A DNA stretch of 32,000 nt, from the NCBI RefSeq assembly GCF_000008465.1, contig NC_006512.1, positions 2,790,001-2,822,000 on the forward strand, given 5' to 3'. Shown here piece by piece: positions 7,456 through 25,291 of the stretch. Within the stretch, counting starts at the first letter, position 1. Each line of letters starts with the position of its first letter. The notes beneath the pieces were generated by a model. The model saw only the letters and a program-made list of their open reading frames with translations, did not search any database and was not told the origin of the DNA. Source of the stretch: Idiomarina loihiensis L2TR (GTDB lineage Bacteria; Pseudomonadota; Gammaproteobacteria; Enterobacterales; Alteromonadaceae). Made by a program: the position numbers and the translations under genes.

Positions 7456-7480
7456 TTAACAACTTTAATGCACGCCGACG
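7456..7480 (-). repeat. Solitary relic of a Tn7-family terminal TnsB-site (same family as 10261-10435)
   Basis: ttaacaactttaatgcacgccgacg differs at 3 of 25 positions from the terminal 25 bp of the 64-bp modules (ttaagaactttaatgtacgccgaca). The terminal ACA is mutated to ACG. Confidence 0.55.
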
Positions 7481-7946
7481 TTTCCACTCATCTTTCTGAA
7501 TGGTTTTCTAACACCAAACGTAATAGCCCGGGATGCACAGAGCACCCTTAAGTCATAAAGTGATTCGAGCAACTCAAGGTCATGAGCCCTGTCAATGGCC
7601 TTACACAGCTCAATAATATTGAGTCCGGGGACATTATTGGCAGGATCAAACAAGTTATTTTCCCGGGCGATATCTCGCGTATCATCACGAATTAGAGGAA
7701 ATTGTTCACGTATGTCAGTAACGGAAGGGTTGTTATCAAGCAGAAGGAAAGCAGCAAATTCGAGATCGGAAAGTAAGTGATGGATGCGCTTGGTGCGGTG
7801 AGAGTAACCTGTAGGGATCGCCCTAAAGATAGAACTTCATCGACCCGCACCCAAGGGCTGTAGTCCGCGCCGGAACCAGATCCGCGTCCTTCCTTTATTC
7901 TTTTCGCAATCTGCCCCTCGCCCAGAGAGTATTTTGATTTTGCCAT
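7465..7946 (-). pseudogene. tnsA: tnsA pseudogene (frameshifted and 3'-truncated)
   Basis: The N-terminal frame reads MAKSKYSLGEGQIAKRIKEGRGSGSGADYSPWVRVDEVLSLGRS. This parallels intact TnsA at 24957 (WIKEGRGSGQNEEYRPWLTVRDLPSLGR). After a 1-nt indel near 7810-7820, a second frame reads GYSHRTKRIHHLLSDLEFAAFLLLDNNPSVTDIREQFPL, parallel to FGHKSRRTHHLLSDLELSVFLLLEWLPDVTQVREQFPL. Similarity is lost near 7610, and the frame runs into the end relic. Confidence 0.8.
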
Positions 7947-8134: not shown

Positions 8135-8941
8135 ATGAAACCTGCACGAAAATTTATAGTACCTGTGTCGCTATCTTTATTAGTAATAGGCCTGTTAATG
8201 ACAAAACAGGTTTATTCCGTTGAACTCGTTCAGATGTGTAAAGTGACAACTATCGGAGTATCTGGAAGTTCGACTTCTTGGACGAGTCAAACCTGCTGGT
8301 GGGAGGATTTAGGAGGCGGTGGCGGGGGCGGCCCCGGCGGAGGAAGTGGTGATCCTTTCCCCAGCGGCGGTGGTGGCTCTGGGGGATCACCTACCTATTC
8401 ACATAATGACTTCGACACAGATGGCAATAATGAGAGCGACTGCTGGAAAAGTTTAGTAGCGAATGGTGATCATTATCTAGATGAGGGTGATGACTTTGGC
8501 ATGAGAGTTTTGAGCGGTAAGAATGATATGCATGACGGCATTGATATTCAAGCACCATACGGTTCAATTATACGCTCTCCAGCTTACGGTAAAGTCACAG
8601 GAGTAGAAAAAACAGATTCTGGTCTTAACGGAGCATATGTACGCATGCGCTATATGAAAAATCAAACCTTATATGAAGCCGTTATGATACATATGGTTGA
8701 AGACTCGCCTACTGTAGGCATAGGGGATATAGTTTATCCTGGCACCCCATTGGGGATGGTCAACAGCACAGGTTCTTCTACAGGTGACCACCTACACTTC
8801 CAATTATATGTTATTGATACTCCTATCTCTCCAGATGGCATTAATCCTTGGACTGGCAAGCCATATAATTATGCAGCATTAGGCCCTAAAACCCCTATTG
8901 ACCCGGTACCCAGAATGGGTGACTTATCTTGTGAAATTTAG
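8135..8941 (+). CDS. Secreted M23 (lysostaphin-like) metallopeptidase with Gly-rich linker
   Basis: Signal peptide ...TKQVYS-VE. Linker GGGGGGPGGGSGDPFPSGGGGSGGSP. M23 motifs HDGIDI (HxxxD) and STGDHLHFQL (HxH). Strong RBS AGAGGA. Confidence 0.85.
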   Translation: MKPARKFIVPVSLSLLVIGLLMTKQVYSVELVQMCKVTTIGVSGSSTSWTSQTCWWEDLGGGGGGGPGGGSGDPFPSGGGGSGGSPTYSHNDFDTDGNNESDCWKSLVANGDHYLDEGDDFGMRVLSGKNDMHDGIDIQAPYGSIIRSPAYGKVTGVEKTDSGLNGAYVRMRYMKNQTLYEAVMIHMVEDSPTVGIGDIVYPGTPLGMVNSTGSSTGDHLHFQLYVIDTPISPDGINPWTGKPYNYAALGPKTPIDPVPRMGDLSCEI

Positions 8942-8966
8942 TGAATAAAAGACATGGAAGGACATT

Positions 8967-10061
8967 ATGAATATTTTAAAAAGAATCTGTTTAGTAAGTA
9001 CTTTTACTTTAGCTATCAGTGTTCATGCGGAAGAACTACATTTCACCCAAGAAAGTAGTACCTTTGTTGAAATACTGAGTTCGCAATACATCGCGACTAT
9101 TAAAGGGGACTCTTCTGACAAAGTTGATTTTTATACTAAAAATCAAGATTTGGTCAATTCAGTCTCATTAGATTGGAAAGCCAACCATGCATGGAGACTT
9201 TCAAAGGATTATTTTCTGGTCGCATCATTAAAAAGAGCACCTGATCCAGAAGCCTATAATCAAGCCGTTTTATTTAAAGGCGATAAAATTGTTGAGCATT
9301 TTAGAGATGTTAAAAATATCCATTCAATACCAGGAGGAGAAAAGTTTGCCATTGAAACAGCCACGGGCAACGATGAAAAGAAAACTCACTTAAAGATATT
9401 TGACGTCAAAAAAGGGTTTGTTAAAGAAGGAAGAATTCCACGGACAACTCGCTTCAGTACGGTGTCTATTTCTCCTGACCTTAATAGCGTTGCAATTTCC
9501 CCTTTCTCCACAGATTCAAGTTCTGTCTTGAATATAACGGTCTACTCTGGTGATAATTTTTCGTCAGAGACAGATTATAACTTCGACAATACTCGAATAT
9601 ATCAAACAATCCCCCTTGCAAATGGGTTAGTGGCAATTAACGTGAATCGCCGTATTGCAGCAATGTCTGAAGCTAAGGCTGAATGGACCATTCCAAATAA
9701 ACAAATTTTTGTTACCGTTGATGTTTTAAAGCAAACCTCAGATCCGAACTACATAATCGCGGAAGAAAATACCGGTAGGGTCGTGGTTATCGGACTAGAC
9801 GGTTCCATCGCCTTTGACTCAAAAGATCAAGAGGATGATACCTTCGAAAAGATAGAGCAAAACGGAGCTTATATTGATGTTGTCAATGACCAGTTAATCA
9901 TTAATGACAGTAATCGTGGGGAGGCGCTAATCATACCGCTTAAAAAACCAAAGCAAGTTAAGCATATTCGTGAAGTAAGCGACATACTAGCTATCGACGT
10001 AGCAAGTGGATACATCGCTTTTAAGAAAAAGGGTAAATTGAAAATAAAGAAGATTAATTAA
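8967..10061 (+). CDS. Secreted hypothetical protein co-transcribed with the M23 peptidase
   Basis: Starts 25 nt after the M23 stop, with RBS GGAAGG. Signal peptide LAISVHA-EE. No recognisable domain. Confidence 0.6.
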   Translation: MNILKRICLVSTFTLAISVHAEELHFTQESSTFVEILSSQYIATIKGDSSDKVDFYTKNQDLVNSVSLDWKANHAWRLSKDYFLVASLKRAPDPEAYNQAVLFKGDKIVEHFRDVKNIHSIPGGEKFAIETATGNDEKKTHLKIFDVKKGFVKEGRIPRTTRFSTVSISPDLNSVAISPFSTDSSSVLNITVYSGDNFSSETDYNFDNTRIYQTIPLANGLVAINVNRRIAAMSEAKAEWTIPNKQIFVTVDVLKQTSDPNYIIAEENTGRVVVIGLDGSIAFDSKDQEDDTFEKIEQNGAYIDVVNDQLIINDSNRGEALIIPLKKPKQVKHIREVSDILAIDVASGYIAFKKKGKLKIKKIN

Positions 10062-10104: not shown

Positions 10105-10260
10105 TGATGTATTTTTAATATCGTAAATTTATAGTTTTTTTAATAATCTTATACTATTTTTCAAAATATCTTTCCTCTTAGCACTTAGAATCGCTCCTAT
10201 TGATAAGAACAAAATTACTCTTAGAGGTTGCGCGAACAACCTTATAGCCAAATCTATTTT

Positions 10261-10324
10261 TAACAACTTTAATGTCTCATTTAAGACCTTTAATGTTTGT
10301 TAAGAACTTTAATGTACGCCGACA
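10261..10324 (-). repeat. Tn7-family right-end module, copy 1 (three TnsB-type sites plus terminus)
   Basis: The reverse complement reads TGTCGGCG-TACATTAAAGTTCTTAA-caaaCATTAAAGGTCTTAA-atgagaCATTAAAGTTGTTA. The CTTTAATG cores lie at 10267, 10288 and 10307, i.e. 19-21 bp apart. It ends in ...GACA at 10324. Confidence 0.7.
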
Positions 10325-10371
10325 GCTATATACTCAACAGGCATTATTTTCCACCCTTAAAATAGTATTTT

Positions 10372-10435
10372 TAACAACTTTAATGTCTCATTTAAGATCT
10401 TTAATGTTTATTAAGAACTTTAATGTACGCCGACA
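10372..10435 (-). repeat. Tn7-family right-end module, copy 2
   Basis: 62 of 64 positions are identical to 10261-10324, offset by 111 bp. The terminal ACA at 10433-10435 abuts the A-run that precedes the intact element. Confidence 0.7.
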
Positions 10436-10439
10436 AAAA

Positions 10440-10589
10440 TGTGGTGTGGTAATAAAGCTCCATACTATACTCGGCTAAGTTATTGATTTATTGAATCACA
10501 TTCGCAGACCTGAATAATAAACAATCATACTAATAAATCGATTAGCCTTTTCTCTTGACTAAAATTTAAGAATAAAGTGTCATACCTAC
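10440..10589 (+). repeat. Left end of the Tn7-like element with three spaced TnsB-type sites
   Basis: Sites are GGTAATAAAGCTCCATACTA (10448-10467), TGAATAATAAACAATCATACTA (10511-10532) and AAGAATAAAGTGTCATACCTA (10568-10588). Their dispersed spacing resembles Tn7-L. Confidence 0.8.
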
Positions 10590-10683
10590 TGGCCTCTACA
10601 ATCACAGACTAAAAGGCTTGATAATACGATGCTTTATATCAGTATAGCTTGAGGCTGAGAGACCATGTCTTAAGAGGTTATGA

Positions 10684-10995
10684 ATGAAAAGCTTATCTTG
10701 CCCTGCCGCTCTATTCTTCCATGGCTCTATCGCTTGGCTAATCCGCTATCTTCACTCAAGGGCCGATGCGCTTTTTTATATCGTGTTAACACTAATCACT
10801 TCACTTGTTGTTCACTTTGCTACTTATAAAGGTGTATTTGTAAGATATTGGCCAGAACATCTCAAAGACGATGCAATATTGTCTAGACTTTTTACGGTAC
10901 CGCTTCTTGCAACCGCCAATATTGCAGTAGCGGCGATTTCTCTTTTCATTGCATCCTTTATTCATAACCCCATGGGGGAGCATTTAAAAAAATAG
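10684..10995 (+). CDS. Small hydrophobic hypothetical protein (2-3 TM helices)
   Basis: ORF only. Hydrophobic segments are present. No clear RBS and no homology recognised. Confidence 0.3.
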   Translation: MKSLSCPAALFFHGSIAWLIRYLHSRADALFYIVLTLITSLVVHFATYKGVFVRYWPEHLKDDAILSRLFTVPLLATANIAVAAISLFIASFIHNPMGEHLKK

Positions 10996-11303
10996 AAGAT
11001 ACTATTTATAAAAATCAATTAAGCACTCAGAACGATCTTGAAAACCTCAGATTGCATATCCCTGCGTCAAAAGAGGTTACCGTAGTATCAGATTTTTTAT
11101 TTTGGTTGAAAAGTCAATTTTTCTGAAACTCTTACTTTTAGTGTAATAGAGGCTTCTTTGACGTCAATCGTTTTATTTTATTTATCGAATATATTCTTTT
11201 TTTGATAATCAAACTAATTAAAACTATAGTTAATGGCTAGCTAATATGGCTTTCTATTGAACAAAAAAAGTATCAATTCGAGTTAAACCTATAGTTTAAT
11301 CTA

Positions 11304-11609
11304 TTACCAAAGTTCTCTTTCTGCAGTTTCTATAAAACTTTCTATTACGTCAAACTCGGCATTAGTAAAAGCTATTTTTGCTCCCCCATGTGTCAAGGTC
11401 ACACCGGAGTCCGTAGAATAAAAACCATAATTAATATTATTTTTATGATTATCATTTCGATCATAATTTTTAATATAATTATTAGCAATCTCAGGATCGA
11501 TCGGAACGGACCAGCCGCCTGAAGATACGATCAAAAGACCTTCTGAATCAGCTTTAAGGAATACTTTACCTTCATCTCTGTCAAGCTTAATCGTATTCAT
11601 GAAATACAC
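11304..11609 (-). CDS. Hypothetical protein, last gene of the cargo operon
   Basis: 101 aa. It starts 32 nt downstream of the preceding gene on the same strand. No domain recognised. Confidence 0.5.
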   Translation of the reverse strand: MYFMNTIKLDRDEGKVFLKADSEGLLIVSSGGWSVPIDPEIANNYIKNYDRNDNHKNNINYGFYSTDSGVTLTHGGAKIAFTNAEFDVIESFIETAERELW

Positions 11610-11641
11610 CTTTTAAAATGATAAGTCTAAATAGATATAAA

Positions 11642-12370
11642 TTACTTCTTAAAACAATACCAATTATGACTACAAAGTTCCGAATTATGACTCATAAACA
11701 AATGTTTACTATAGTCATCACTCTCTGTCCCCGAGTCTGGCTTGAACCATTTTTGATGGCATTGGCTAATTAAATCGCTAAAGATAGAAACATGGATCCC
11801 TTCATCGTGGTCAACCAAGTGGTCTGCTATAATCATCAAAATTGTAGAATAAAAGTCTAACTGGCTAGTTGGAATTCTTACTGAGCCAAACCCTCGGTTT
11901 TTACTCTTTTCAAGACTTACGTTCAATTTATCGTGTATGTCATGAACCAATACAGAGTTGTCCTGTTGAGCATGAAATACAGGATGTGCCGGACTAACTT
12001 CCTTATCAAAATCGTAATGAAAACCTATAGGATCTTTAAGATTTAGTTTCTCACTTGGCTTGTTAGGTCGGCAATACAGTACATCCGTTTTGTATTTTGT
12101 AAAATAAATATCTTTACCCTTCTTAATTGCGTGCATATGGCCTTTTACATATATATTTATTTTACTCTTACGATCTGACTTGCCCGAGTCTGATACACTT
12201 TCAAATTTAGCTAAATCACATATATCACATTTAAAAATACCATCATCAATCTCTTCAATAGACCAAGGAGGTATATGCACGAAGGACCCTATATCTAACT
12301 TAGAACACATAGTTAAGATACAATTCGTAAAATGACTATGGTTCTTATCAAGTAGCTTTTGAAATGACAT
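11642..12370 (-). CDS. Hypothetical His/Asp/Cys-rich protein, fourth gene of the cargo operon
   Basis: 242 aa, starting 8 nt after the upstream stop. Motifs are CDICD, KGHMHAIKKG, HPVFHAQQD, VHDIHDK and ADHLVDHDEGIH. These are compatible with metal binding, but no family could be assigned. Confidence 0.55.
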   Translation of the reverse strand: MSFQKLLDKNHSHFTNCILTMCSKLDIGSFVHIPPWSIEEIDDGIFKCDICDLAKFESVSDSGKSDRKSKINIYVKGHMHAIKKGKDIYFTKYKTDVLYCRPNKPSEKLNLKDPIGFHYDFDKEVSPAHPVFHAQQDNSVLVHDIHDKLNVSLEKSKNRGFGSVRIPTSQLDFYSTILMIIADHLVDHDEGIHVSIFSDLISQCHQKWFKPDSGTESDDYSKHLFMSHNSELCSHNWYCFKK

Positions 12371-12378
12371 GTAAGTTA

Positions 12379-13545
12379 CTAATTCTTAGATTCTAAGTAT
12401 GGATGATATAGTTCATACGCTTCTGTAGCAATACGGCTCAAATCAGCACCTCTAGGCATCCAATCCAACGCACCTATAGAGTGTTTTTTACAAACAGGAG
12501 CTTCTTTAACCAAACAAAAATATCCCGCTGACTCTCCACACTCGAGACATGCAGATTGCTTGCATTCGATACCTTTCTTAAGAAGAAGTTGATAGCCTGA
12601 ATCTACCTCTTCATCAATTAAAATATCATCTAAGTCGAATCGCCACCAAAATTCGTATTTTGTTTTCTGAGAGAATGGACCAGTGTATAAAGCTGAGTTA
12701 AATTGTTGCTTATTTTCTATGAAATCATCGTAATTAAGATCCAAATATGACGCAGCAGCTTCAGACTTCAAAATGACACCAGGAAATTTCAATACAGAAT
12801 TATATAGCCAGAATCCTATTAAATAGGCTAACCCTGTTTTAAATTTTAATATAACGGAATCTTCATCAGAATTTTCATTATCTATAGCTTCAAGAAGCTC
12901 AACATAGTCACCGTATAAGTTAAAAGACCTCGCATATCCACTAAGAATGGGTTCCATATCGTCTTTATCCAAAATTTCTGTGGCTATGTCTACAATATCT
13001 TTTCTAGTATTATCTTCATTAACGAAGTCTTGCTTTTCTAGCTTATTAATTCTTTCTCTAAGTTCTTCAAATCCCAGGTAGATTGAATGAATACGTACAA
13101 TATCCTCAGGGATTAATTCTATATCCTCGTTCCCCGTCCCTTTAAGGTCTAATTTCGCTGAATATAAATGAGCACGTTGAACGAGCTCTTTTATTCTTTG
13201 ACGCGGAGTTTGCTTGGACATAACGCGAGAATATCTGCAATGAGGCACCCCAGCAAGCTTACAGGCATCGCTCACTACAGACTCTGATAGCTTTGAGTTA
13301 TAGCCGCTCAAATCGTGATCGACTACAACTAATTTTATATCAGGGTTATCTGTTAAGTACCGCTCGAATTGCTTCTCAGTTGAATTGTTAGCTCCAACTT
13401 TTTCAGATGGCTTCAACAAAGTTTCGCAAACAGAATCGTCGACTTCGACAACTTCTACACTATCTTGTTGTAATTGACGCCGTAAATTACTTACTACTTC
13501 GGATCGTTTCTTATTATCGTCGTCAATAACTAAAATTTTATCCAT
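12379..13545 (-). CDS. Receiver (REC)-like domain protein with unassigned C-terminal region and terminal Cys cluster
   Basis: The N-terminus KILVIDDDNKKR ... IKLVVVDHDLSG has the acidic pocket and a candidate acceptor Asp (about D76) of CheY-like receivers. The C-terminal roughly 250 aa are unassigned. The protein ends with CKQSACLECGESAGYFCLVKEAPVCKKH (zinc-ribbon-like). Confidence 0.6.
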   Translation of the reverse strand: MDKILVIDDDNKKRSEVVSNLRRQLQQDSVEVVEVDDSVCETLLKPSEKVGANNSTEKQFERYLTDNPDIKLVVVDHDLSGYNSKLSESVVSDACKLAGVPHCRYSRVMSKQTPRQRIKELVQRAHLYSAKLDLKGTGNEDIELIPEDIVRIHSIYLGFEELRERINKLEKQDFVNEDNTRKDIVDIATEILDKDDMEPILSGYARSFNLYGDYVELLEAIDNENSDEDSVILKFKTGLAYLIGFWLYNSVLKFPGVILKSEAAASYLDLNYDDFIENKQQFNSALYTGPFSQKTKYEFWWRFDLDDILIDEEVDSGYQLLLKKGIECKQSACLECGESAGYFCLVKEAPVCKKHSIGALDWMPRGADLSRIATEAYELYHPYLESKN

Positions 13546-13551
13546 AAAAAC

Positions 13552-15789
13552 CTACTTAACAGGAAGTTCAATTTCAAAGGTAGTTGCAAACCCATTCTCA
13601 GGCGAGACCAACTCTATCCTGCCACCGAGCTTTTCGATTATTTGTTTTACTAAGGGCAACCCCAATCCCATTCCACTACCTAATGGGTTATTTTCGTTAG
13701 AAGTGGTCGTATACAGTGGGTCCCATATGAGTCTTCTAGTTCCAGGAGGAATACCTGCACCATTATCACTCACTCGAATAAAGTGACTGTTTTTCCGATT
13801 CAGAGTCGAGATTTTTATGCATTTATTCTCTTTTGATTCAGATACAAGAGCCTTAAGGGCATTAGTATATAAATTGTGAATGATTCCTTTATAGACAGCC
13901 ACCGGCATTTTAGGCGCATACACATCTCGGTCTACATCTACCATATCTATATCAATATCGCGTTCTAACCTGAACTTAGAAAACGAATTAACGACATCCT
14001 GTATTTGAGGAAAAGCTCTAAAATAGACCTCATTGCTGAAATTGATCGACTCAATAAACGACTCAGTATACTCGGTATAAGCTAAAAAAGCAGACAACGA
14101 CTCATCAAGCTTTTGTGAGTGGCCAGATAATTCAGGATAGTTAGCTTCGAGAAATTTTACTCGATCTAGAGTTTCCTCTAAAAGATGAAGAGTGCTTTTG
14201 AATTCATGCGTCATAAAACCCGCAACCACTCCGAGTAACCCCATATTTACAAAATTTTCACGGGTCTTTCTTTCATGATCTATGAGCTTATCATAGTCAT
14301 TTCTCAAAGAGCTGTATTTACTTGTTAGTGCTTCCTTGTCCTCTTGGCTCAATGTCGACGTATTTTCGATTAGGTCAATTACCTCGTCTATCTCGTCTTG
14401 TGCCCTTTCATAATCTCTTTTTTTTCTTTCTTCCTCTTCATCCAGAGAATATTTTTTATCATGGTATGCGACTAGCTCTATGGAAAATCGGCATATATCA
14501 TTTAGCTGTTGAAACCCCTCATTTTCTACTAGGCCTTGCCTATCGGTACTAGGAGAAAGAGATTTAATATCGTCAGTTATACGAGCATTGCTAGCCTCAA
14601 TAAAAACCCCTCCAACTAACTGATGAGTTTCAGGTAAGGCAAGCATTGGGTTGAGTTTAGGACTCGTTCTTTGCTCAGTCGACATTTCATAGTGTTCTTT
14701 CATAAAGGGAGAACGCCAATGCCGTTCGCTGCGAGAACTATCCGCATTTAGACTTAACCAGTCATCATCAATCTCTCCGTAAGGAGGTACCTTAAAGCTT
14801 TTATCATATACAGCTACACTTGGTGAGTTTCTTATCCATGCTCTAGCCTTGTTCCCGTTAATAGTTCCATTTCGGAGCATACCTTTACGGGAAGGAAAAT
14901 AATTCACTTGTCCGTATATATCACAACCCATTAAATTCTTTATTGGAATTTTTACTTCATCACATAAACCTTTATCACGATGAAGAACCTTCATAAAAAG
15001 ATTATTTCCGTTGGTATAGAAGTAGGATCTAAATAGATAACTTTTGAGAACATCGTCCGCGATATTATCTACTTCAGACTTTCTTTTCTCGGTTTTGTCG
15101 CCAGGAACTATAAAATTTAAATTGAATTTATCGCTTTCTTCTGATGAAACTTCACGTTTAGATTTATAGGAATGCTTTAGCTTAAAGTCATAAGGTGCGT
15201 CAGACAAAAGTGCATCTATCGGCGATACCATTGATAAAGTGCTATCTTTGATTTGCTTAATTTTTTTGTAATCGAATTTGTGTCTGAGGTTTTTTATAAC
15301 TAAGGTAGTTCCCGCACTATCCTCAACTCGATTATAAAGTCGATAACTAATAATAAGCGAGTCGATCGAGGATTGACTATCTACTTTTTCCCAATTAAAT
15401 CTAGCAACTATTTTGCTTCTATCACCACATTTATTTTCATAGACCGTGATTAAAAGTAAAGTTTTTCCTAAAAATCTAGTCGCAAACCTTCCAATTCCCT
15501 TTGAGCCAGTAATTGTTCTACCAAACACTTTACTTGTAGGTGAGCCTGCTTTATTTCCGGTAGCAATTCGCATCCATTTATTCTTAAAGTCATCCAGACT
15601 CATTCCATGTCCGGTGTCTTTCACAACGATTCGGCTATCACTCCACTCAACATTACAGCTTGTTGCATCAGCATCGTATGAATTTTTAATCAATTCGGTC
15701 AACGCGACTTCAGAAGAGCTAACAAGCTGCTCTCCTAACTCACGGAGGATTGCACTTTCAACACTGAAACGAATTTCATCGCGATTCAT
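13552..15789 (-). CDS. Cytoplasmic fusion protein: N-terminal Hsp90/MORC-like GHKL ATPase module plus C-terminal histidine-kinase core (DHp H-box and HATPase_c)
   Basis: N-terminal Bergerat motifs: LTELIKNSYDADA (N-box), VKDTGHGMS (DxGxG) and GSKGIGRFA (GxxGxG). A central acidic coiled-coil follows. C-terminal motifs: H-box GFMTHEFKSTL, N-box IIHNLYTNALKAL, G1 VSDNGAGIP and G2 GSGMGLGLPLVKQIIE. No TM segments. The ATG directly abuts the MTase stop (TAAATG). Confidence 0.75.
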   Translation of the reverse strand: MNRDEIRFSVESAILRELGEQLVSSSEVALTELIKNSYDADATSCNVEWSDSRIVVKDTGHGMSLDDFKNKWMRIATGNKAGSPTSKVFGRTITGSKGIGRFATRFLGKTLLLITVYENKCGDRSKIVARFNWEKVDSQSSIDSLIISYRLYNRVEDSAGTTLVIKNLRHKFDYKKIKQIKDSTLSMVSPIDALLSDAPYDFKLKHSYKSKREVSSEESDKFNLNFIVPGDKTEKRKSEVDNIADDVLKSYLFRSYFYTNGNNLFMKVLHRDKGLCDEVKIPIKNLMGCDIYGQVNYFPSRKGMLRNGTINGNKARAWIRNSPSVAVYDKSFKVPPYGEIDDDWLSLNADSSRSERHWRSPFMKEHYEMSTEQRTSPKLNPMLALPETHQLVGGVFIEASNARITDDIKSLSPSTDRQGLVENEGFQQLNDICRFSIELVAYHDKKYSLDEEEERKKRDYERAQDEIDEVIDLIENTSTLSQEDKEALTSKYSSLRNDYDKLIDHERKTRENFVNMGLLGVVAGFMTHEFKSTLHLLEETLDRVKFLEANYPELSGHSQKLDESLSAFLAYTEYTESFIESINFSNEVYFRAFPQIQDVVNSFSKFRLERDIDIDMVDVDRDVYAPKMPVAVYKGIIHNLYTNALKALVSESKENKCIKISTLNRKNSHFIRVSDNGAGIPPGTRRLIWDPLYTTTSNENNPLGSGMGLGLPLVKQIIEKLGGRIELVSPENGFATTFEIELPVK

Positions 15790-17127
15790 TTAAGTCTGCC
15801 TTTTTAGCCAGTCGACTATCACGCTATTCATCTGGTTCACCTCTACCTTTTTTAGCTTATTCGAGTGACTTACTATCTGTCGCTCAAAGTCTACCGCCTT
15901 TAAATGATTAATCAAACTATCAATATCATCCTCAGCGACTTGATGAACTCCATGTACTGTACCTATAGCAATGGCACCAATCCTGTTAGTAAGAGTTCTT
16001 GGTCCAAACTTTGTAAATCCGGAGTTGTACAATATAGAAGGGGATGGATGAGGACTATATCTCCACCACGGCGATTGCTTCCGGCAAGTATAGGTATCTA
16101 TAAGCTCCTCAGGAACTGAATCAAAATAGCGTTGAAGATTTTTTGAAGGTGAAGAGGACGGAGAAACAAGCCAGCACTTCTGATCGCCCAAAACGTAATA
16201 TTTAAAAAAATTATTCTCATCTAAAGAGTCGATGTTAGGCGGCAAAGTCTTCATTTGGGTAATGCAGGGAAAGACATCAAATCCCACTTTCAAGCCAAAC
16301 TGCTTTCTTATTTTTTCTGTCAGACAGAAAACAGTCTGTGAACCCGGACTAAGGCCTCGTTGAGCAAAAATTTCTTTATCTCGTTTTGTATAAGAAAGAA
16401 GTCTCTCATCACTCCCTGTTACCGACTCAGCTTCCTTAATTTTTAAATCTTCCGATACTTTAAAAAACCTCCAACGGCATGAGCTCGTAGATTTATCAAT
16501 TATTGAAAGGCTTGCTGTTGTTAAAACCTTTGAATCAGTAAAGATATTTGACTCAAATCGATACACGTCAACTGACCAACCTTTCTTCTCTATTGCGTTA
16601 CGTAAAAAGGCTGCAGAAGGTCGTGATACCCATTCGTACGGAACTACTTGAGCACAAAGTCCGTCATCTGCAGTACTCAAGAGTGCTTGGCACATAAAAT
16701 AAACAAATCCATTAGCTCGCTTATCGAACTTTTCGTCCAGCGCACGACCAAGTATGCCCGATAACTCTAGCTTCCACTTCGGAGACAAATCGTGGTGTCG
16801 AACATAAGGAGGGTTACCGATAGCCAAATCGAAATCGCCCCCAAAATCCTCACCAAAAAAAGCACATTGGTTCAAAATCCTTTTGCGATTTTCGTTTTGA
16901 AAATCGCCAAGCCGTTTACTATCTACTTCGATCCCGAGATAACTATCATATACGTCTGATCTCGAAAAATTTCCCGAGCCGGCACCTAAGTCCAAAACTG
17001 AACGGATATCCCTTCGATACTCTTTCACCAATTTCCAAACAAATTCGACAATTTTATCTGGCGTATCAATTTGACACCTTGATAAATAGTTATCCATAAA
17101 TTGGTTACTTTCAGGATTTACAGTCAT
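15790..17127 (-). CDS. DNA methyltransferase, NPPY type (N6-adenine/N4-cytosine, gamma-class motif order; Eco57I/TaqI-like)
   Basis: SAM-binding motif I VLDLGAGSGNF precedes catalytic motif IV AIGNPPYVRHH. The C-terminal roughly 250 aa are a plausible target-recognition region. Confidence 0.8.
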   Translation of the reverse strand: MTVNPESNQFMDNYLSRCQIDTPDKIVEFVWKLVKEYRRDIRSVLDLGAGSGNFSRSDVYDSYLGIEVDSKRLGDFQNENRKRILNQCAFFGEDFGGDFDLAIGNPPYVRHHDLSPKWKLELSGILGRALDEKFDKRANGFVYFMCQALLSTADDGLCAQVVPYEWVSRPSAAFLRNAIEKKGWSVDVYRFESNIFTDSKVLTTASLSIIDKSTSSCRWRFFKVSEDLKIKEAESVTGSDERLLSYTKRDKEIFAQRGLSPGSQTVFCLTEKIRKQFGLKVGFDVFPCITQMKTLPPNIDSLDENNFFKYYVLGDQKCWLVSPSSSPSKNLQRYFDSVPEELIDTYTCRKQSPWWRYSPHPSPSILYNSGFTKFGPRTLTNRIGAIAIGTVHGVHQVAEDDIDSLINHLKAVDFERQIVSHSNKLKKVEVNQMNSVIVDWLKRQT

Positions 17128-17289
17128 CTTTGCACTTTGCCCAGTATTTACATAGATATAATGTAACCTTTTGAGTCGACGTCCACAATCCCCATAGGTA
17201 CTATTTACCCGAAGAAATTAGCTTTTCTTAATGTACGAGAGAGAAGTTAATCGATATAGCTTTTCTGTTCACTAGTTATTCATTACCAC

Positions 17290-18888
17290 TCATACTCTGG
17301 CTAACAAATGGCGGCAAACATTATTAGCCCACCTCCTTACATTTTCTTGCCGTATTGAACCCGCTTTTTCAGACGCTTGATGTACTATAAAAAAATGATT
17401 GTCTTTACCAAACCCACTATCAAAATAATCCTTTGGCCAACTCAACGACTTTTTGAGTAGCTTTATCTCAATCTCGGATAGGTGTTCAACTACTGCTTTC
17501 GCAGAAGAAGCCATAACCACCTTTGTTGATAATGACTTTGCAGCATCCGAGGTATCAACCTCCATAAGGTAGAATTGGTGACCACTGACAGTCACCCTGG
17601 CCAACATCCAACACCTTGGCGCTAAGTCATCCCGCATTAGGTGCATTTTGCATCGACCAACAGATGGCAGCTTTCTAAAGGCTAGACGCTCAACTCTGCA
17701 GTTATGATTAGTAACCAAGTAGTTCAGCATTTTTGAAAAGCTTTCAAACTTACTATCGTACAAGTGCATATCATCAGTATTTTCGTCTAAACCATCCCAT
17801 TCAGCACTAGGCAACTCACCCATAGGAGATTGTTCTTCTGTACTAACTAGACTGGATGCTTCGCTTCCGTCAGAATTGTCGCTGGAACCAACCTTTTTCC
17901 TTTTTCTTGCCGTTTTATGAGTATTTACCGCCTTTGCAAATTCAACTTTCGTTTTGACTCCATCAATTTGCACCGGATCATTTTCACCACTGGAGTCTTG
18001 ATCCTCATCTACTTCATGATTAGGCGGTCGGTAATCTCCACCACGGGCACCCCTTCCACCACTCAGCTCAGGCACATAGAATTTGGGACTAAAGAACTCA
18101 ACGTCACTAGGCACACCTGTCGGAATACCTGTTAATTCAGTGATTTCATAAACCAACAAGGTATTAGTTTCTGTATCTAAATTTCCGCGAACTTTTAAAT
18201 TAACTCCTTGAAGGGGAGGAGGCTCAAACTCAAAGTTCCAAATCCTGTATGAGCCTCGGTTAAAGCCAGACTCTAGCTGCGCCTTACTGATACTTTCGTA
18301 GGAGAGCCGAGCATCGTTATCTAAGAGAAGCCAAGCTAAGTAACGCCGGTAACCGGGATCTGAAAATACGTTATCGGGGCAGGTGCTATTTGGGAGCACA
18401 GTAATGACGGCATGCTCTGAATTAGTCGCATCATGCTCTACTGAAAACTCATTCTGCAGTATTCCGTGCTCCATACACGCACGAGAGAAGTAGGCATTAT
18501 GAAAAAATAACGCCCTGGCTAATTCAAACTGCGGTAAATACACTGTCATGCCATCAGGTAAGGTTTTAACGAAACAACGAGACTTCCGCTCCTTTGGCAA
18601 ATCTCGCTCTTTCGCAGGGCAGTCTTCTAGATTGCTTACTTCCCATTTTTGTAAGTTATCGACGGTGAACTCTATCTCAGAACCTTGTTTCCGAAATGGT
18701 CGCGTGGGATTAATAACATTTTTTCTGACTAGAATTGGGGCTTGAGACAATAGAACACTATCGTTGCCTCTCGTTTTTCTTGGGTAAATACTTAGATTAA
18801 TCCCCCATTGGCTTCCATCAGTCCGTTTGAACACTGATCCAATACCATTTATCCAGGTGTTATCTTCAAACCCACCGAGCCTATCCAT
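17290..18888 (-). CDS. tnsE: TnsE-like target selector (conjugal/lagging-strand pathway)
   Basis: 532 aa, directly after tnsD with a 3-nt gap. Tn7 TnsE is about 538 aa. Segments PQFELARALFFHNAYFSRAC, NFEFEPPPLQGVNLKVRG and LMEVDTSDAAKSLSTKVV parallel my recollection of Tn7 TnsE (PQLELARSLFLINSYFCRSC, FSFDPPPMQGWKLHVKG, LLEVDASDGVKMLSTKVL). Confidence 0.75.
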   Translation of the reverse strand: MDRLGGFEDNTWINGIGSVFKRTDGSQWGINLSIYPRKTRGNDSVLLSQAPILVRKNVINPTRPFRKQGSEIEFTVDNLQKWEVSNLEDCPAKERDLPKERKSRCFVKTLPDGMTVYLPQFELARALFFHNAYFSRACMEHGILQNEFSVEHDATNSEHAVITVLPNSTCPDNVFSDPGYRRYLAWLLLDNDARLSYESISKAQLESGFNRGSYRIWNFEFEPPPLQGVNLKVRGNLDTETNTLLVYEITELTGIPTGVPSDVEFFSPKFYVPELSGGRGARGGDYRPPNHEVDEDQDSSGENDPVQIDGVKTKVEFAKAVNTHKTARKRKKVGSSDNSDGSEASSLVSTEEQSPMGELPSAEWDGLDENTDDMHLYDSKFESFSKMLNYLVTNHNCRVERLAFRKLPSVGRCKMHLMRDDLAPRCWMLARVTVSGHQFYLMEVDTSDAAKSLSTKVVMASSAKAVVEHLSEIEIKLLKKSLSWPKDYFDSGFGKDNHFFIVHQASEKAGSIRQENVRRWANNVCRHLLARV

Positions 18889-18891
18889 CGC

Positions 18892-20400
18892 TTACAACCC
18901 CATTACCTCAGAAAGAAACTCTCTTGCTTCTTCCGTTAAGCGCTCTTCACTAAGCCCAGCGCTACGCAAAACATCCCATCGTTTAAGGTGTTCACTTTGT
19001 TTATGCCGCTCAATCGCCACGTGTGTTATGCGGCGGATCTGATAGTCCGCAATCGTTTCCGTGTATCTACTTAGAAACAGCTTACACAGGGGAAGCTTAT
19101 ATAAGTTTTTTTCCACCTTTGACTTATGATCCAACTGGTTAAAGTACCAGTTTCTTGATCTCCTAGGGCTCTCCAGCTTTATTTCAAAGCAGTCACGAAT
19201 GGATATCAGAGCCTTTAACAAGCCGCGATCAAATGAGCTCCAATTCACTCGTGTAGACAGTGCTGACCTTTTACACATCAACTTTGCATTAAGCGACAAT
19301 AACCAAGCTCTATCGTGGCGATACAGCCAAGTATAGTCTCCTCCGGCACCTTCAAGGCGAGCCCTTTTCGTCCCTTTATTCTTTATCGCTTTAAGCCAAA
19401 CTCTGCGCCGTTTAAGTATTGTTAACTTATCAGCCTGGAGCATAAGGCTGTGAGTAACTGACTTTTCCGGCTCATATGATTTGACGTCTTTAATGACGTC
19501 ATTTAACGCAATCGTATCTCCGAGAAATGCATGTAATACAACAAGGTGCTCAAGGTAACTGAAGCTTTTACGATGTTTTCTAAATAGGCTTCTTAGCCAG
19601 CATGTATCAGAGTCTATTAGTTTCAGGCCAACACTTTTCAACCAGCTTTCTGACCAATAGTTAGTGACTTTCCGAGCGACTTCTTCATGCTCTATATTGC
19701 AGCCTCTATTGAATCCAAAATCACAAGCAAGAGCTTTATAAAACAACCCCCATTGGATAACTGTTGGTACCGACTGCTCAGGCAGGTTCAAAATCGATGT
19801 AATGCTTGAATTCAAGACATTGCTCTGCCTATTCGTTTTGCTTTGCGGCTTACAAGAACATAAGTTTAGGTCTGCGGCCGTATACACATGGCGCTTATAA
19901 GAAGTCCGTCTTACTGCTGTTTCCTTTAGCTCCCCATGAATAGGACAGTAATCCATACCCGCAATTTGCCAGTCTCGTCGCCAGAAGCATTCGCCAAATT
20001 GATTCCATTGCTGTTCAATGCATTTAGGGCAATATCGTAAGTAGTACGGTTGAGTAATTCGGGATGCGGCGAATCCTGACATGACATGTACCGAATGCAC
20101 TTTATCGGCTAAAAGCTGCTTTTTCAGTTCTGTTCTTCGTGATTCGCCAATAAACAGAGCGTACAGAGGAAACAATGTATGTTTATAAAGCAAACTCTCA
20201 GGTTGAACGTTCAGCTGGCCTGGATATAGTTCCGCTACCTGCTCTAAATGACCGTGTAAGTCAGACGTAGCAATGATTGTGTTCTTCCCAAACACTTCGT
20301 GTAAGAGCTCTTTAGGTGAGGTTAAACCGCTGTGGATACCATAACGGGCTATCGTGCTATAGATAAGCTCATCGGGATAAGGAAGCGGAAAACCGAGCAT
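18892..20400 (-). CDS. tnsD: TnsD/TniQ-family target selector (attTn7/glmS pathway)
   Basis: N-terminal TniQ motif PYPDELIYSTIARYG. CCCH zinc finger CPKC...CPIHG. Abuts the tnsC stop (TAGATG). The element sits at the glmS attachment site. Confidence 0.85.
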   Translation of the reverse strand: MLGFPLPYPDELIYSTIARYGIHSGLTSPKELLHEVFGKNTIIATSDLHGHLEQVAELYPGQLNVQPESLLYKHTLFPLYALFIGESRRTELKKQLLADKVHSVHVMSGFAASRITQPYYLRYCPKCIEQQWNQFGECFWRRDWQIAGMDYCPIHGELKETAVRRTSYKRHVYTAADLNLCSCKPQSKTNRQSNVLNSSITSILNLPEQSVPTVIQWGLFYKALACDFGFNRGCNIEHEEVARKVTNYWSESWLKSVGLKLIDSDTCWLRSLFRKHRKSFSYLEHLVVLHAFLGDTIALNDVIKDVKSYEPEKSVTHSLMLQADKLTILKRRRVWLKAIKNKGTKRARLEGAGGDYTWLYRHDRAWLLSLNAKLMCKRSALSTRVNWSSFDRGLLKALISIRDCFEIKLESPRRSRNWYFNQLDHKSKVEKNLYKLPLCKLFLSRYTETIADYQIRRITHVAIERHKQSEHLKRWDVLRSAGLSEERLTEEAREFLSEVMGL

Positions 20401-22068
20401 CTATCCCACCTGTTTTAACCTAGCTTCCATATCGAAAATGTCACGGCCTACTGCAAGCTCACCATAAAACTGACTTTTCCGTTGTGAGTATTTAAAGCGT
20501 AAATCATCGGATGGAAGGGTGTGCCATTCTTTTGACTTTATTGTTTTTGCCTTCGGTTTGGACTTTTGCACTGCCGTAGGCTCTTGCTCCGTTTTATACC
20601 ACTCGAGAACGATACGAGTTAACTCCGGCAGCTCAAGCTCAGAATGTTCACTGAAAACTTTCTCAACCAGCGCCGGCAGCAAGTCAGATTCGCAGCCCAT
20701 CGCCTGGAGCATATTATAAAGCCTTAAAGCTTTTTCATTATTGCCAAACGACACCTCTTTTTTCTTCTCTTCCTGCTCCTGTGCAATTAGGTTTCTGAGT
20801 TCAAGTAAGCGCTTATCTATTGAGGGTAAGTGTAAGTCCGAGTATTTCACTATCAAGTCAGCATCATTGCGTCTCAAGGCTTCAAGCATTGGGTGAACAG
20901 GAATAAGTTCTTGTTCATAAACTTTTCGAAGTAAGTCTGCGGTAATACGTTCAAGGCCCGTCGCTATTGCCCGCATTTGAGCCAATACAAAAATCTTCAC
21001 GACGATATCTAAAACGCCTTGTGATAGGTCATACCAACAGTCTCGAACTTCGTCACTGAGCGTTTCATCTCGTCGCTCTAGCCACTGGTACTTCCATAGT
21101 TTATTAGTAAAGGCCTCCCATTCGCTCAGCTTTGGCTCTCCCGTTTTAGGGTGGTATCGACGAGTGCCTCGTTGCATTGGTTCCCAAAACAATGAACCAA
21201 ATCCAGCGCTTCTTCTCCCAGCCTGCAGCTCCATTTCAAAGATCGGCCTGGCTTTTGGTGTTCCAACTAATACAACCGGAACACCGATGACGTTTACCAA
21301 CGCAACAAAGAACTCAAGCATAGCTTCTTTACTTAAAGTACCTTTCAACCCTAGTCTTTGAATTTCATCGATAACAAGAACACCAATCGCTTTTTGAGTA
21401 GCTACTTGCCCCATCAAAGCCAGGAGAACTTCAGGCCCATGACGTTTTCGAACATACTTTTTCTCATAGCCTGTCTGAAGCGTCCGGTCGACTTCACGGA
21501 AAAAGTTCAAACATAAGCTTTTAAGAGAACCATCACTCGGGCATTCAATGCGCAGGTAGGGGAGTTGAATAAAATTATAGTCCGGATGGAAAATCACCTC
21601 AGGATAAGTAGCGAGTATACGGTTAACTGTGGTGCTTTTCCCTGACCCTGAACAGCCTATCAGGGACAAACATTTAGCCGTTGAATTCGACTGTGAAAAA
21701 CGAAAGTCACTCGTCGCCCCCTCCATTATGCGCTGATATCCCTCCTGCATTTTTTTGTTAAGGGAGCCATCTGCAGGGTTACGACCAACGTAACCCGCCC
21801 GAATCATGATTGACAACTTCTCCTCTAACTGTAAATGCATTGATAGAGGTTGAAAGAAATCATCCAGCAAAGACGCTATGTTATGGGCTCTTTCTTGAGG
21901 CTCTGCAAATCGATTTTCTTGGTCGAACCGGACTTTTCCGGTGAGGCTATTTCGAAGTGTTTTGCGATCCATTATCGGAGGCAGAGCTTCAATCAGCGGG
22001 TTGCCCTGATAGCGCTCAGGTTTAAGAGGCCTGTAAACCGCTGAAACGTAATTATTGGGTAGCGGCAT
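20401..22068 (-). CDS. tnsC: TnsC AAA+ ATPase regulator
   Basis: Walker A GCSGSGKST. Walker B VLVIDEIQ. 1-nt overlap with the tnsB stop (TAATG). Confidence 0.9.
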   Translation of the reverse strand: MPLPNNYVSAVYRPLKPERYQGNPLIEALPPIMDRKTLRNSLTGKVRFDQENRFAEPQERAHNIASLLDDFFQPLSMHLQLEEKLSIMIRAGYVGRNPADGSLNKKMQEGYQRIMEGATSDFRFSQSNSTAKCLSLIGCSGSGKSTTVNRILATYPEVIFHPDYNFIQLPYLRIECPSDGSLKSLCLNFFREVDRTLQTGYEKKYVRKRHGPEVLLALMGQVATQKAIGVLVIDEIQRLGLKGTLSKEAMLEFFVALVNVIGVPVVLVGTPKARPIFEMELQAGRRSAGFGSLFWEPMQRGTRRYHPKTGEPKLSEWEAFTNKLWKYQWLERRDETLSDEVRDCWYDLSQGVLDIVVKIFVLAQMRAIATGLERITADLLRKVYEQELIPVHPMLEALRRNDADLIVKYSDLHLPSIDKRLLELRNLIAQEQEEKKKEVSFGNNEKALRLYNMLQAMGCESDLLPALVEKVFSEHSELELPELTRIVLEWYKTEQEPTAVQKSKPKAKTIKSKEWHTLPSDDLRFKYSQRKSQFYGELAVGRDIFDMEARLKQVG

Positions 22069-24146
22069 TAATCGTCATCCTCAAAGAGTTCATCAATATA
22101 ATCCGGATAATCAAGGTCAGGGCTGCTTTCCTTAAGAGGGATAACATCAGCTGATTTATTACCCGACTGAGCATTTTTAGGTGCTTTGCTTTTACGCTCT
22201 AATCTTTTTTCACTAGACCGGTTGTCATTGATAGCTCTTATTCGCTCCGCTTTTGGCCGATCAGAGCGAGCGGGGGAATCAGATACAGTCTGAGAAATCT
22301 TATCAAGCACAAATTCTTCATGTTCTCGACGGCTTTCTTTAGCTGCTAACTTTGCTTTTGCAGCAACTTTCTTCTGCTCTTCTTGAAGTTGCCAAACATC
22401 CCAAAATGATGAGCCTCGGTATTGACGAGAAATTTCAGTCAGGCTGCACTTCCAGTACTTGTTGCTTCCTTTTTCATAAAAGAGATAAATACTGTCTGCA
22501 CTCAACGGATCATATGCCGCCATCATCTTTTTAGGTCGTTTCACATCACGACCCCGATGCGTCCAACCTAACCGGACGATCTCTGAAGCAGTATAATACA
22601 AGCCAAATAACCCCACACCGCGCTCTGAAAGCGTTACCTCACTCCTGGGAAGCAGTGCAATTTTAAGTGCATCACTATCAGTCTGGCGGAGACGCCCAGT
22701 ACGATTTTGAATACCCCAGTTCCAAAGGTGAATGGGAGTACTCGGTAAGTCCGTTGGCATATCAACTTCCCGATCGTATTTATCAAGTACCGCAAATTGA
22801 TTGTGTTGCAGCACTGACGACAAAACAATTTGAGTGAAGTCTGTAATCGTTAGCTTGGCATCAAGACGGTAATCTGAGCCTCCACGCTTTTTCACCAAAT
22901 TACCGGTTACATAACCAGGCACAAACGGACCAAAAGATTCGTGCATTGTTTTAAAATGCCTTTCGACAATACCTTTGGCTTCGCCTCGATACGGTGGAGT
23001 ATTTTCTATTCGCATAGAAAAACTACTCTCTAAATTTTCAATCTGATGACCAAGTAATTCCCCTCTATCGGCCAGGAGGGCATCAGGCAAACCAATACAT
23101 GGCCACTCATCGTCCGTGATATCAAAACCAAGCTCGCGACAATAGTCTGACTTACTGCTTATCGCTACGTGCAATGCCTGAAGCGCAGCGGCGTATGAGG
23201 GGTTTTCAAAACCGATATAAAATCCAGCCACCATTCGACTGAATACATCGATAACCATGTAAACAACCGGACGCCCAACGATATTGCCCCTGTCGGAATC
23301 AGAAACCAGATAAACATCCGCTATCGTCGCATCAATTTCATAACGAGAGCCGGGTCCCAAAGCTTGCGATGCTGCAGTTCCGTGTAACGGTCGTATATCT
23401 TTGCTGTAGTCTTTCTTCGATATCCTTTTTTGCAGCGCTTCCGTTTGATTATATTCTCGTTTATAGAAATGACGCAGCTGCCATAAGCTTGGTAGATTTT
23501 CCTCAGCAACATCCGGAAAGTAGTTGTGATACATGGTTTCTAAGCGACGATGTGCATAGGGAAATGAATGCCTCTTGTCGCTTAAAATATACTTATCAAT
23601 CGCTATCCGAAATAACCGTTCAGTTTGTTCATCAACAATTGCTCCCGTGCCTGGTAAATACTTACGCGGGCGGCCTAATTTTTTTCCTTTGGCGACACGC
23701 TTTTTGCCCTTGCCACCAGAATTCTTGTAGTCAGGCAGTAAGGCATTAGGTATTTGTCCCCGTTGCCAATATCTCCGCGCTAGTCGGTAAACCGTCTGCT
23801 TTGTCGTACCAAACTCACTAACAATTTTATCAACTACTGGTCCTCGCCTTTTCGGATTATAAAAGTCAGTTAGTTCAATCAAAGGCCTCAACACCGCAAA
23901 ATTCTTATCCCGTTTATCACGGGCAACGGTTCCCTCGCCCGGCGATTCATATGCAAGGTAGTTATACGGGTCGTCTATACGCTCAAAAGCGTCATCATCA
24001 ATTGTCTTATAAATTTCGCTGATAAGAATTAACTCGGGCAGTGCTTTTTCATCGTCCAGACTTATCCAGACGAGTTGTTCATCAAGACTTTCGAGAATGC
24101 GAAAGCGCTCATCGTGAAACTTAACTACTTCATTGATTCGAAACAC
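22068..24146 (-). CDS. tnsB: TnsB DDE transposase
   Basis: DDE triad context: YEIDATIADV, ALLADRGE and PYRGEAKGIVERHF. N-terminal HTH region. 17-nt overlap with tnsA. Confidence 0.9.
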   Translation of the reverse strand: MFRINEVVKFHDERFRILESLDEQLVWISLDDEKALPELILISEIYKTIDDDAFERIDDPYNYLAYESPGEGTVARDKRDKNFAVLRPLIELTDFYNPKRRGPVVDKIVSEFGTTKQTVYRLARRYWQRGQIPNALLPDYKNSGGKGKKRVAKGKKLGRPRKYLPGTGAIVDEQTERLFRIAIDKYILSDKRHSFPYAHRRLETMYHNYFPDVAEENLPSLWQLRHFYKREYNQTEALQKRISKKDYSKDIRPLHGTAASQALGPGSRYEIDATIADVYLVSDSDRGNIVGRPVVYMVIDVFSRMVAGFYIGFENPSYAAALQALHVAISSKSDYCRELGFDITDDEWPCIGLPDALLADRGELLGHQIENLESSFSMRIENTPPYRGEAKGIVERHFKTMHESFGPFVPGYVTGNLVKKRGGSDYRLDAKLTITDFTQIVLSSVLQHNQFAVLDKYDREVDMPTDLPSTPIHLWNWGIQNRTGRLRQTDSDALKIALLPRSEVTLSERGVGLFGLYYTASEIVRLGWTHRGRDVKRPKKMMAAYDPLSADSIYLFYEKGSNKYWKCSLTEISRQYRGSSFWDVWQLQEEQKKVAAKAKLAAKESRREHEEFVLDKISQTVSDSPARSDRPKAERIRAINDNRSSEKRLERKSKAPKNAQSGNKSADVIPLKESSPDLDYPDYIDELFEDDD

Positions 24147-24957: not shown

Positions 24958-24967
24958 TACGAACCCC

Positions 24968-25281: not shown

Positions 25282-25291
25282 GGAGGTAAAT

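Follow-up and report, generated by a model that had tools for sequence, protein, structure and literature searches.

A Tn7-like transposon of Idiomarina loihiensis L2TR carries, next to tnsE, a tight run of genes in which a DNA methylase is coupled to a histidine kinase and a receiver-like protein. The locus was analysed as a window of 32,000 nt of NC_006512.1, and the coordinates given below are window positions. Five open reading frames (ORFs), g1 to g5, follow one another on the minus strand. As the initial annotation had stated, and as was confirmed by the ORF list and the sequence, the gaps between successive ORFs are 0, 6, 8 and 32 nt, and the stop of g1 and the start of g2 form TAAATG. 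With a probability of roughly 0.6, judged from the synteny of g1 to g4, the homology to Ambrosia, the intact kinase and receiver motifs, the exchange of the fourth gene among related cassettes and the mobile-element context, the cargo is a four-gene defence cassette directed against mobile elements, belonging to a class composed of a methylase, a paraMORC-type histidine kinase, a receiver and an effector. Ambrosia is the one validated member of that class.

The extent of the conserved unit was determined in 95 loci with a kinase of the g2 family, taken from genomes, metagenomes, one plasmid and viral contigs; some of these loci are duplicates of each other. The presence of g3 and g4 was counted in loci with at least 2 kb downstream, and that of g1 in loci with at least 1.4 kb upstream. 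It was found that g3 followed g2 in 70 of 72 loci and that g3 together with g4 followed it in 65 of 72. The gene g1 directly preceded g2 in 71 of 76 loci, and the complete order g1-g2-g3-g4 was present in 55 of the 63 loci with both flanks. The exceptions were mostly frameshifts, truncations and ORF-calling problems. In three further loci, a divergent g4 was found after g3 (hhalign E 0.007, with the same order of motifs). The conserved unit consists of four genes, g1 to g4, and not of five.

The five-gene syntenic operon proposed initially was thus retained for g1 to g4 and abandoned for g5 (11304-11609, minus strand), an ORF of 98-101 amino acids (aa) that lies outside the conserved cassette and whose coding status is uncertain. 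Translation of g5 more likely begins with the ATG at 11600 (98 aa), which is preceded by AAGG and agrees with the public calls on near-identical contigs. Homologues of g5 were absent from the related loci except for the near-identical contigs L089 and L090, and g5 was missing from the closest distinct relative (L091-L093), which is likewise Tn7 cargo beside tnsE. On this distribution, g5 is taken to be an unrelated passenger ORF and no part of the conserved unit.

The gene g1 (15790-17127, minus strand) encodes a predicted N6-adenine DNA methyltransferase of the Eco57I type, 445 aa in length. The assignment as an NPPY DNA methyltransferase held, as motif IV reads GNPPYV and an Eco57I-type Pfam family was matched (PF07669, E 1e-10); motif I reads VLDLGAGSGNF. 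The protein carries its own C-terminal M_Eco57I_C domain, PF22837 is annotated on a protein identical to it, and the PADLOC model MTase_II was matched with E 1e-18. Matches to PglX were weak and generic (PADLOC E 3.8e-7; NCBIfam 18 bits against a cut-off of 500), and the PADLOC methylase model mad2 was matched with E 3.2e-7. The 162 nt between tnsE and g1 contain no ORF, and hence no XRE gene adjoins the cassette. A conserved upstream XRE/HTH (helix-turn-helix) gene was considered for the family as a whole and rejected, being found in one of 72 loci. In that locus (L094), a small HTH regulator gene at 5337-5582 overlaps the start of the methylase gene, like a C-protein or the Ambrosia regulator AbrR.

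The product of g2 (13552-15789, minus strand) is predicted to be a soluble sensor histidine kinase of 745 aa. It is composed of a MORC/HgiDII-like GHKL ATPase (residues ~1-180), a conserved middle domain without recognised fold (~180-500) and a DHp and CA core (~500-745). Pfam placed HATPase_c_3 at residues 25-158 and HATPase_c at 636-744, and with a 35-sequence profile, residues 490-740 matched the DHp and CA domains of solved histidine kinases (E 8e-19). The phospho-His motif reads H528-E529-F530, of which H528 and E529 do not vary among the 35 homologues. The same holds in the C-terminal part for N639 and N643 of the N box, D675, G677 and G679 of G1 and G704-G710 of G2, and in the N-terminal ATPase for N36, D58, G60, G62 and the lid, GSKGIGRF. 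The N-terminal ~180 aa matched the BbrUII/HgiDII ATPase module (NCBIfam NF050001, E 6e-22) and the PADLOC model REase_II (E 5.5e-12). Beyond this ATPase module, no nuclease model of Pfam, PADLOC or NCBIfam matched g2, and none matched g3 or g4. Hydrophobic membrane-like segments were absent from g2 and from every other g1-g5 product. The Pfam and Protein Data Bank (PDB) profile matches and the lack of hydrophobic segments bear out the initial description of a soluble protein with a GHKL module, an H-box and a HATPase_c core; the statement that the cassette has no recognisable nuclease was also upheld by Pfam, PADLOC and NCBIfam. The g2 family comprises at least 805 homologous clusters, nearly all of ~745 aa.

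The product of g3 (12379-13545, minus strand; 388 aa) combines a divergent receiver with a novel C-terminal domain. Residues ~1-135 correspond to the receiver, with the acidic pair D8-D9 and the phospho-acceptor D76; in the family alignment, D9 and D76 are invariant, and position 8 is always Asp or Glu. When the g3 profile was compared with the PDB, CheY-like receivers only were matched (best E 1.3e-3). The AlphaFold2 model of g3 was confident (pLDDT 88.7, pTM 0.89) and consisted of a (beta-alpha)5 domain and, after it, ~250 aa that form helices and small sheets. A Foldseek search of this model against the PDB returned local receiver/flavodoxin-like matches only, and the C-terminal domain had no structural match. 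Together with the AbrC-family alignment described below, these results support the REC-like nature that had been assigned to g3. No Pfam, PADLOC or NCBIfam model matched g3, and neither an HTH nor any other Pfam domain was found in g3 and 65 homologues.

The C-terminal domain of g3 keeps aromatic, Gly and Pro residues, R371 and an invariant Cys pair (C333/C344), and its alignment contains no conserved acidic, His or Lys residue. Because conserved residues of a catalytic type are lacking, this pattern of conservation points to an adaptor and not to a metal-dependent enzyme. Two proteins, P0218 (596 aa) and P0264 (376 aa), appeared to be g3-g4 fusions, with Arg/Ser-rich junctions resembling frameshift read-through. 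They are probably assembly or calling artefacts and were dropped as evidence of a physical interaction between g3 and g4.

The fourth gene, g4 (11642-12370, minus strand), encodes a 242-aa protein of an unnamed family and is the candidate effector. It had been called an orphan, which proved incorrect: the family comprises 418 clusters at 50% identity, and almost all members are stand-alone proteins of ~240 aa. Its conserved site consists of H118-x-D120, H129-P-x-F-H133-x-Q135, R165-x-P167, D172, D183-H184 and W237. Nothing in Pfam, NCBIfam, PADLOC or the PDB sequences matched g4. The possibility that g4 is an HNH protein was ruled out, since there was no HNH match and hhalign comparison of the g4 profile gave E 0.27 with AbrD, the HNH endonuclease of Ambrosia, and E 0.07 with a 12-member AbrD-family profile. 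A weak match to DUF2290 (PF10053) was obtained for 2 of 55 g4 homologues, with both Pfam (E 0.0018) and PADLOC (E 0.001); 150 g4 representatives and 10 divergent members gave no such match. In the validated Helicase+DUF2290 defence system, the partner protein is DUF2290. It is likely that g4 is the effector of the cassette. It is proposed to attack the invader because it bears the sole unassigned enzyme-like site and occupies the position taken by nucleases in sister cassettes.

These sister cassettes were recognised in a survey of the neighbours of the wider kinase superfamily in viral contigs and two plasmids, in which proteins were counted. Receivers of the Response_reg family were encoded beside the kinase in 16 cases. 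Among the nuclease and hydrolase families, HNH was represented by 13 proteins (with 2 more each for HNH_2 and HNH_4), and EcoRII-C, Vsr and the MBL-fold hydrolase by one protein each. The methylases were of the C5 (12 proteins), Eco57I (10), N6_Mtase (10) and N6_N4 (6) types. Therefore, the core of kinase and receiver is constant, and the modules that can be exchanged are the methylase and the fourth gene. By this comparison, g4 is placed in the slot that is held by nucleases in sister cassettes. One sister cassette, at 4628-9762 of L095 (Hymenobacter volaticus plasmid NZ_CP095070.1), encodes a methylase of the N6_Mtase type, a kinase of 687 aa, a protein of 227 aa and a hydrolase with the MBL fold, and is regarded as a further example of effector swapping. 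A two-gene version is present on an Enterobacter mori plasmid (NZ_CP119171.1; L096, 5956-9178), where the kinase is followed by a 357-aa receiver protein of the AbrC family and neither a methylase nor a fourth gene adjoins.

The closest functional precedent is Ambrosia of Pseudomonas aeruginosa, which was shown to be active against phages in a 2025 preprint (bioRxiv 10.1101/2025.09.30.679545). It consists of AbrR (XRE, HipB-like), AbrA (N6 methylase, 448 aa), AbrB (kinase/HSP90-like ATPase, 747 aa), AbrC (receiver, 209 aa) and AbrD (HNH, 213 aa). According to its authors, point mutations of conserved residues in AbrA to AbrD (N40A, D60A, H60A and others) abolish defence, and an AbrR E45A mutant and deletion constructs were also made. 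They further reported that reporter expression increased upon infection, that AbrC carries a helix-turn-helix of the winged type (wHTH), that AbrA methylation gave phage no protection, that Ambrosia was not toxic to the host, and that the system is found mostly in Pseudomonadales (10.1101/2025.09.30.679545). HMMs of the system were published with cut-offs of 100 bits for AbrA, 500 for AbrB, 150 for AbrC and 200 for AbrD.

The cassette of I. loihiensis resembles Ambrosia in the order of its genes, namely, an N6-adenine methylase, a kinase with HATPase_c_3 and HATPase_c, a receiver and a small fourth protein, and in the size of the methylase (445 aa here and 448 aa in Ambrosia) and the kinase (745 and 747 aa). 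BLASTP alignment of g2 with residues 1-399 of AbrB, the published part, gave 25% identity over 378 aa (E 5e-19), and N36 of g2 was aligned with N40 of AbrB, the residue whose mutation abolishes defence. The g2 profile covered Ambrosia-type kinases from ~2 to 720 in 12 IMG/VR loci in which AbrC-like and AbrD-like genes follow. In an hhalign comparison with a 15-member AbrC-family profile, g3 was matched with 94.6% probability (E 7e-8), and D76 was aligned with the essential D60. Considering these alignments, g2, over its whole length, and the receiver domain of g3 are judged to be homologous to AbrB and AbrC. The methylase is of the Eco57I type here, whereas AbrA belongs to N6_Mtase/MmeI; g3 has 388 aa with a novel C-terminal domain of ~250 aa, whereas AbrC has 209 aa; and the fourth gene is g4 instead of the HNH endonuclease gene. 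A subtype in which the methylase is of the Eco57I type, the receiver is long and has a new output domain, and the fourth gene belongs to the g4 family appears to be undescribed, and Pfam, NCBIfam and PADLOC 2.0 do not contain it.

The class itself had been predicted earlier. Bellieny-Rabelo, Pretorius and Moleleki (2021) described in silico soluble kinases with HATPase_c_3, HEF_HK and HATPase_c, to which a receiver-like protein of the Response_reg_2 family was linked in 91.6% of 644 regions (PMC8011034). A methylase, mostly of the C5 type, was usual upstream, restriction-modification (R-M) nucleases (HNH_2, Vsr) were found nearby, and a cytoplasmic two-component system tied to R-M was proposed on purely computational grounds (PMC8011034). 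The locus studied here agrees with this description in having a soluble kinase with HATPase_c_3, DHp and HATPase_c and a literal H-E-F at the phospho-His, an adjoining receiver-like protein in which no further known domain is present, a methylase immediately upstream, and surroundings that are mobile and rich in R-M genes. It differs in that PF19191 (HEF_HK) scored 12.7 bits on g2, below the cut-off of 24.1, and in that the methylases of the published set are mostly of the C5 cytosine type, with Vsr or HNH_2 encoded beside them. HEF_HK was carried by 6 of 120 g2 homologues among the matches listed and was weak in P0107. Response_reg_2 (PF19192) was found in none of 66 g3-family members at E<=1 in a library whose inclusion of PF19192 was not directly confirmed. 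Because the class was published in 2021 and a homologue was validated in 2025, the initial claim that the combination was unrecognised fails, although the coupling of a DNA methylase to a His-Asp pair, on which it was based, is real.

Other known systems share single features with the cassette. PADLOC gave no indication of BREX, DISARM, Detocs or Dnd, in agreement with the initial annotation, and MADS was likewise excluded. The likeness to the HgiDII/BbrUII enzymes is limited to the ATPase module, the N-terminal ~180 aa of g2; the remainder of g2 is a DHp-CA kinase core and not the rest of a restriction enzyme. The paraMORC GHKL ATPases and the HgiDII/BbrUII family of Type II restriction enzymes were reportedly treated by Iyer, Abhiman and Aravind in 2008. 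Detocs (DtcABC) also applies His-Asp phosphotransfer to phage defence, but it has no methylase and consists of the kinase DtcA, a buffer receiver (DtcB) and a receiver-PNP effector (DtcC); its PADLOC models did not match any cassette product. In Pgl, or BREX type 2, a DNA methylase acts alongside a protein kinase in phage defence. However, PglW is a Ser/Thr kinase, PglZ and PglY/BrxC are absent here, and the sole match was the generic one of PglX to g1. Of the MADS models in PADLOC (mad1 to mad8), mad2 alone was matched, again by g1. MADS, BREX and Detocs were rejected as the identity of the cassette, since no component matched beyond the generic methylase ones.

The catalytic motifs are intact in the methylase and in both ATPase modules, as are the H-box and the receiver's acidic pocket, and this is compatible with the following mechanism. 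The methylase g1 would modify adenine in its own recognition motif, as expected from its family. A dimer of g2 would survey DNA or an infection cue by means of its N-terminal GHKL ATPase and middle domain, and its CA domain would then phosphorylate H528. The phosphoryl group would pass from H528 to D76 of g3, the counterpart of the AbrC residue D60 that is essential in Ambrosia. The C-terminal adaptor of g3 would license g4 directly or switch on its expression, and g4 would attack the invader, most likely its DNA. In this scheme, g1 may serve self-marking, as in classical R-M, or may create a substrate, as suggested for Ambrosia. The 'epigenetic self-marking' attributed to the operon initially was an assumption, and the failure of AbrA methylation to protect phage lends it no support.

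More tentatively, g4 may found a new enzyme family, its site being H-x-D/E ... H-x-Q ... R-x-P ... D, and may be licensed post-translationally when the novel C-terminal domain of phosphorylated g3 contacts it directly; this more specific proposal is possible, though rather less likely to be right than wrong. If it is true, the His-Asp relay gates restriction at the protein level and not via transcription, and the cassette represents a branch of the Ambrosia class that is distinct in mechanism and whose effector has a new chemistry.

Several results weigh against the assignment of the cargo to this defence class. BLASTP found no similarity between g1 and AbrA, which belong to different Pfam families, and no XRE gene adjoins the cassette, whereas AbrR heads Ambrosia. 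The receiver of g3 lacks a conserved beta5 Lys and keeps the beta4 Ser/Thr only partly, so that phosphotransfer is plausible but not assured. Similarity of g4 to any nuclease or to AbrD was not detectable, and H129 and D183-H184 are lost in the most divergent branch of its family. Structure prediction, which had been suggested as a check, was informative for g3, with a confident model whose receiver part was matched, but not for g4, whose AlphaFold2 model, based on a four-sequence alignment, was poor (pLDDT 58) and gave no Foldseek match. Finally, a scan for promoters and terminators gave no signal exceeding the shuffled background.

The locus might instead be an ordinary Type II R-M system in which g1 is the protective methylase, g4 is an endonuclease of a new fold, and g2 and g3 exert transcriptional control only. 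A transcriptional role of the kinase-receiver pair was proposed by Bellieny-Rabelo et al. (PMC8011034) and, for AbrB and AbrC, by the authors of Ambrosia (10.1101/2025.09.30.679545). In line with this, g1 resembles Type II methylases in being self-sufficient and having a C-terminal domain of its own, the Ambrosia reporter responds to infection and AbrC is said to carry a wHTH, and the HTH gene that overlaps the methylase start in L094 is C-protein-like. An unrecognisable g4 is also compatible with this explanation because restriction enzymes are very diverse in sequence. Nevertheless, the g3 family shows no HTH or other Pfam domain, the C-terminal domain of g3 has no counterpart among PDB structures, and methylation did not protect phage in Ambrosia. 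Moreover, a kinase of ~745 aa with two ATPases is as strictly conserved as the methylase, which would be a heavy investment for a transcriptional switch. This explanation is considered unlikely. Even less probable is a non-defence epigenetic, regulatory or addiction module carried for maintenance of the element or control of host genes. Travel with transposons, islands, plasmids and proviruses would fit addiction modules too, and the Pectobacterium homologues from which the 2021 paper arose had come to notice through their induction during plant infection and under competition stress (PMC8011034), but Ambrosia protects strongly from phage without host toxicity, the sister cassettes bear HNH, EcoRII-C and MBL-fold nucleases, and the N-terminus of the kinase is the same as in the HgiDII/BbrUII restriction enzymes. 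As to the five-gene, categorically new methylation-linked phosphorelay defence system that was originally envisaged, the proposed check against profile libraries did go in its favour, in that neither g3 nor g4 nor g5 falls under a named system of PADLOC 2.0, Pfam or NCBIfam; furthermore, g3 is not a member of Response_reg_2 and g4 is not an HNH protein. Given that the architecture was already published and a homologous system validated, that the kinase and the receiver have homologues in AbrB and AbrC, and that g5 is unconserved, such a novelty is very improbable.

Cassettes in which a methylase and a paraMORC-type kinase are joined with a receiver and an effector constitute a large class of mobile-element cargo that is modular in build and of which only one member has been tested. 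The subtype carried here is abundant across phyla, as indicated by the numbers of kinase and g4 clusters. Since g3 and g4 are invisible to Pfam, NCBIfam and PADLOC, current defence pipelines would see only an orphan methylase beside a 'sensor histidine kinase'. Annotation would be extended by a name for the subtype and by knowledge of the function of g4, and the subtype bears on a question posed by Ambrosia, namely, how DNA methylation and attack are tied to a phosphorelay.

Gamma- and Betaproteobacteria as well as Verrucomicrobiota contain cassettes of this subtype, and further ones lie on many metagenome contigs whose taxonomy is unassigned. The cassettes are cargo of Tn7-like or TniQ/TniB transposons in the window and in L001, L088 and L091, lie in integrase islands in L002 and L004, and are carried by a Paraburkholderia plasmid in L094 (NZ_AP023177.1). 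A viral or proviral context was represented by 65 IMG/VR viral contigs; the loci include L097-L101. A megablast search of plasmids with the cassette gave zero matches, and a genome scan with a single-protein query returned two irrelevant kinases and nothing else.

The carrier of the cassette in the window is a Tn7-like transposon at 10440-26669. It contains tnsA (24130-24957), tnsB (22068-24146), tnsC (20401-22068), tnsD (18892-20400) and tnsE (17290-18888), all on the minus strand. The element is bounded by inverted end repeats starting with TGT (10440-10465 and 26644-26669), which read TGTGGTGTGG... at one end and ...CCACCACA at the other, and both ends are flanked by a 5-bp AAAAA target duplication (10435-10439 and 26670-26674). 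It is inserted downstream of glmS (26695-28527), with 25 nt between its right end and the glmS stop. All the features of a Tn7-like carrier, that is, tnsABCDE, TGT-starting repeats, a 5-bp duplication and insertion downstream of glmS, are present, and the end repeats, the duplication and the insertion site establish that the genes are cargo of a Tn7 mobile element, as had been claimed. The further statement that g1-g5 make up the whole cargo was accurate in part: they occupy ~85% of the stretch from tnsE to the left end, which also contains a 103-aa ORF, and the element has a second two-gene slot. The 103-aa ORF (10684-10995, plus strand), beside the left end, has strongly hydrophobic segments (Kyte-Doolittle 2.13) and no family match.

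The second cargo slot (25292-26298) lies between the right end and tnsA. It contains the gene of a 140-aa HTH_37 protein (25876-26298, minus strand) and a divergent 175-aa ORF without family. In contig L164 (4084-5661), in which glmS is identical, the same slot is occupied by unrelated ORFs of 292 and 209 aa. The glmS protein is also identical in the NCBI record CP005964.1.

Immediately to the left of the main element, remnants of a second Tn7-like element were found at 7456-7479, 7697-7904 and 10255-10435. They include a tnsA-like fragment with 74-87% identity to parts of 24707-24915, and the end-like motif TTAA[CG]AACTTTAATG[CT]ACGCCGAC is present three times. Between two Tn7-like end remnants, at 8135-10061 on the plus strand, the gene of a 268-aa M23 peptidase precedes that of a 364-aa protein whose N-terminus resembles a signal peptide and which has no family. 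A 111-bp tandem duplication adjoins the left end of the main element. The remnants look like traces of successive insertions at the glmS attachment site.

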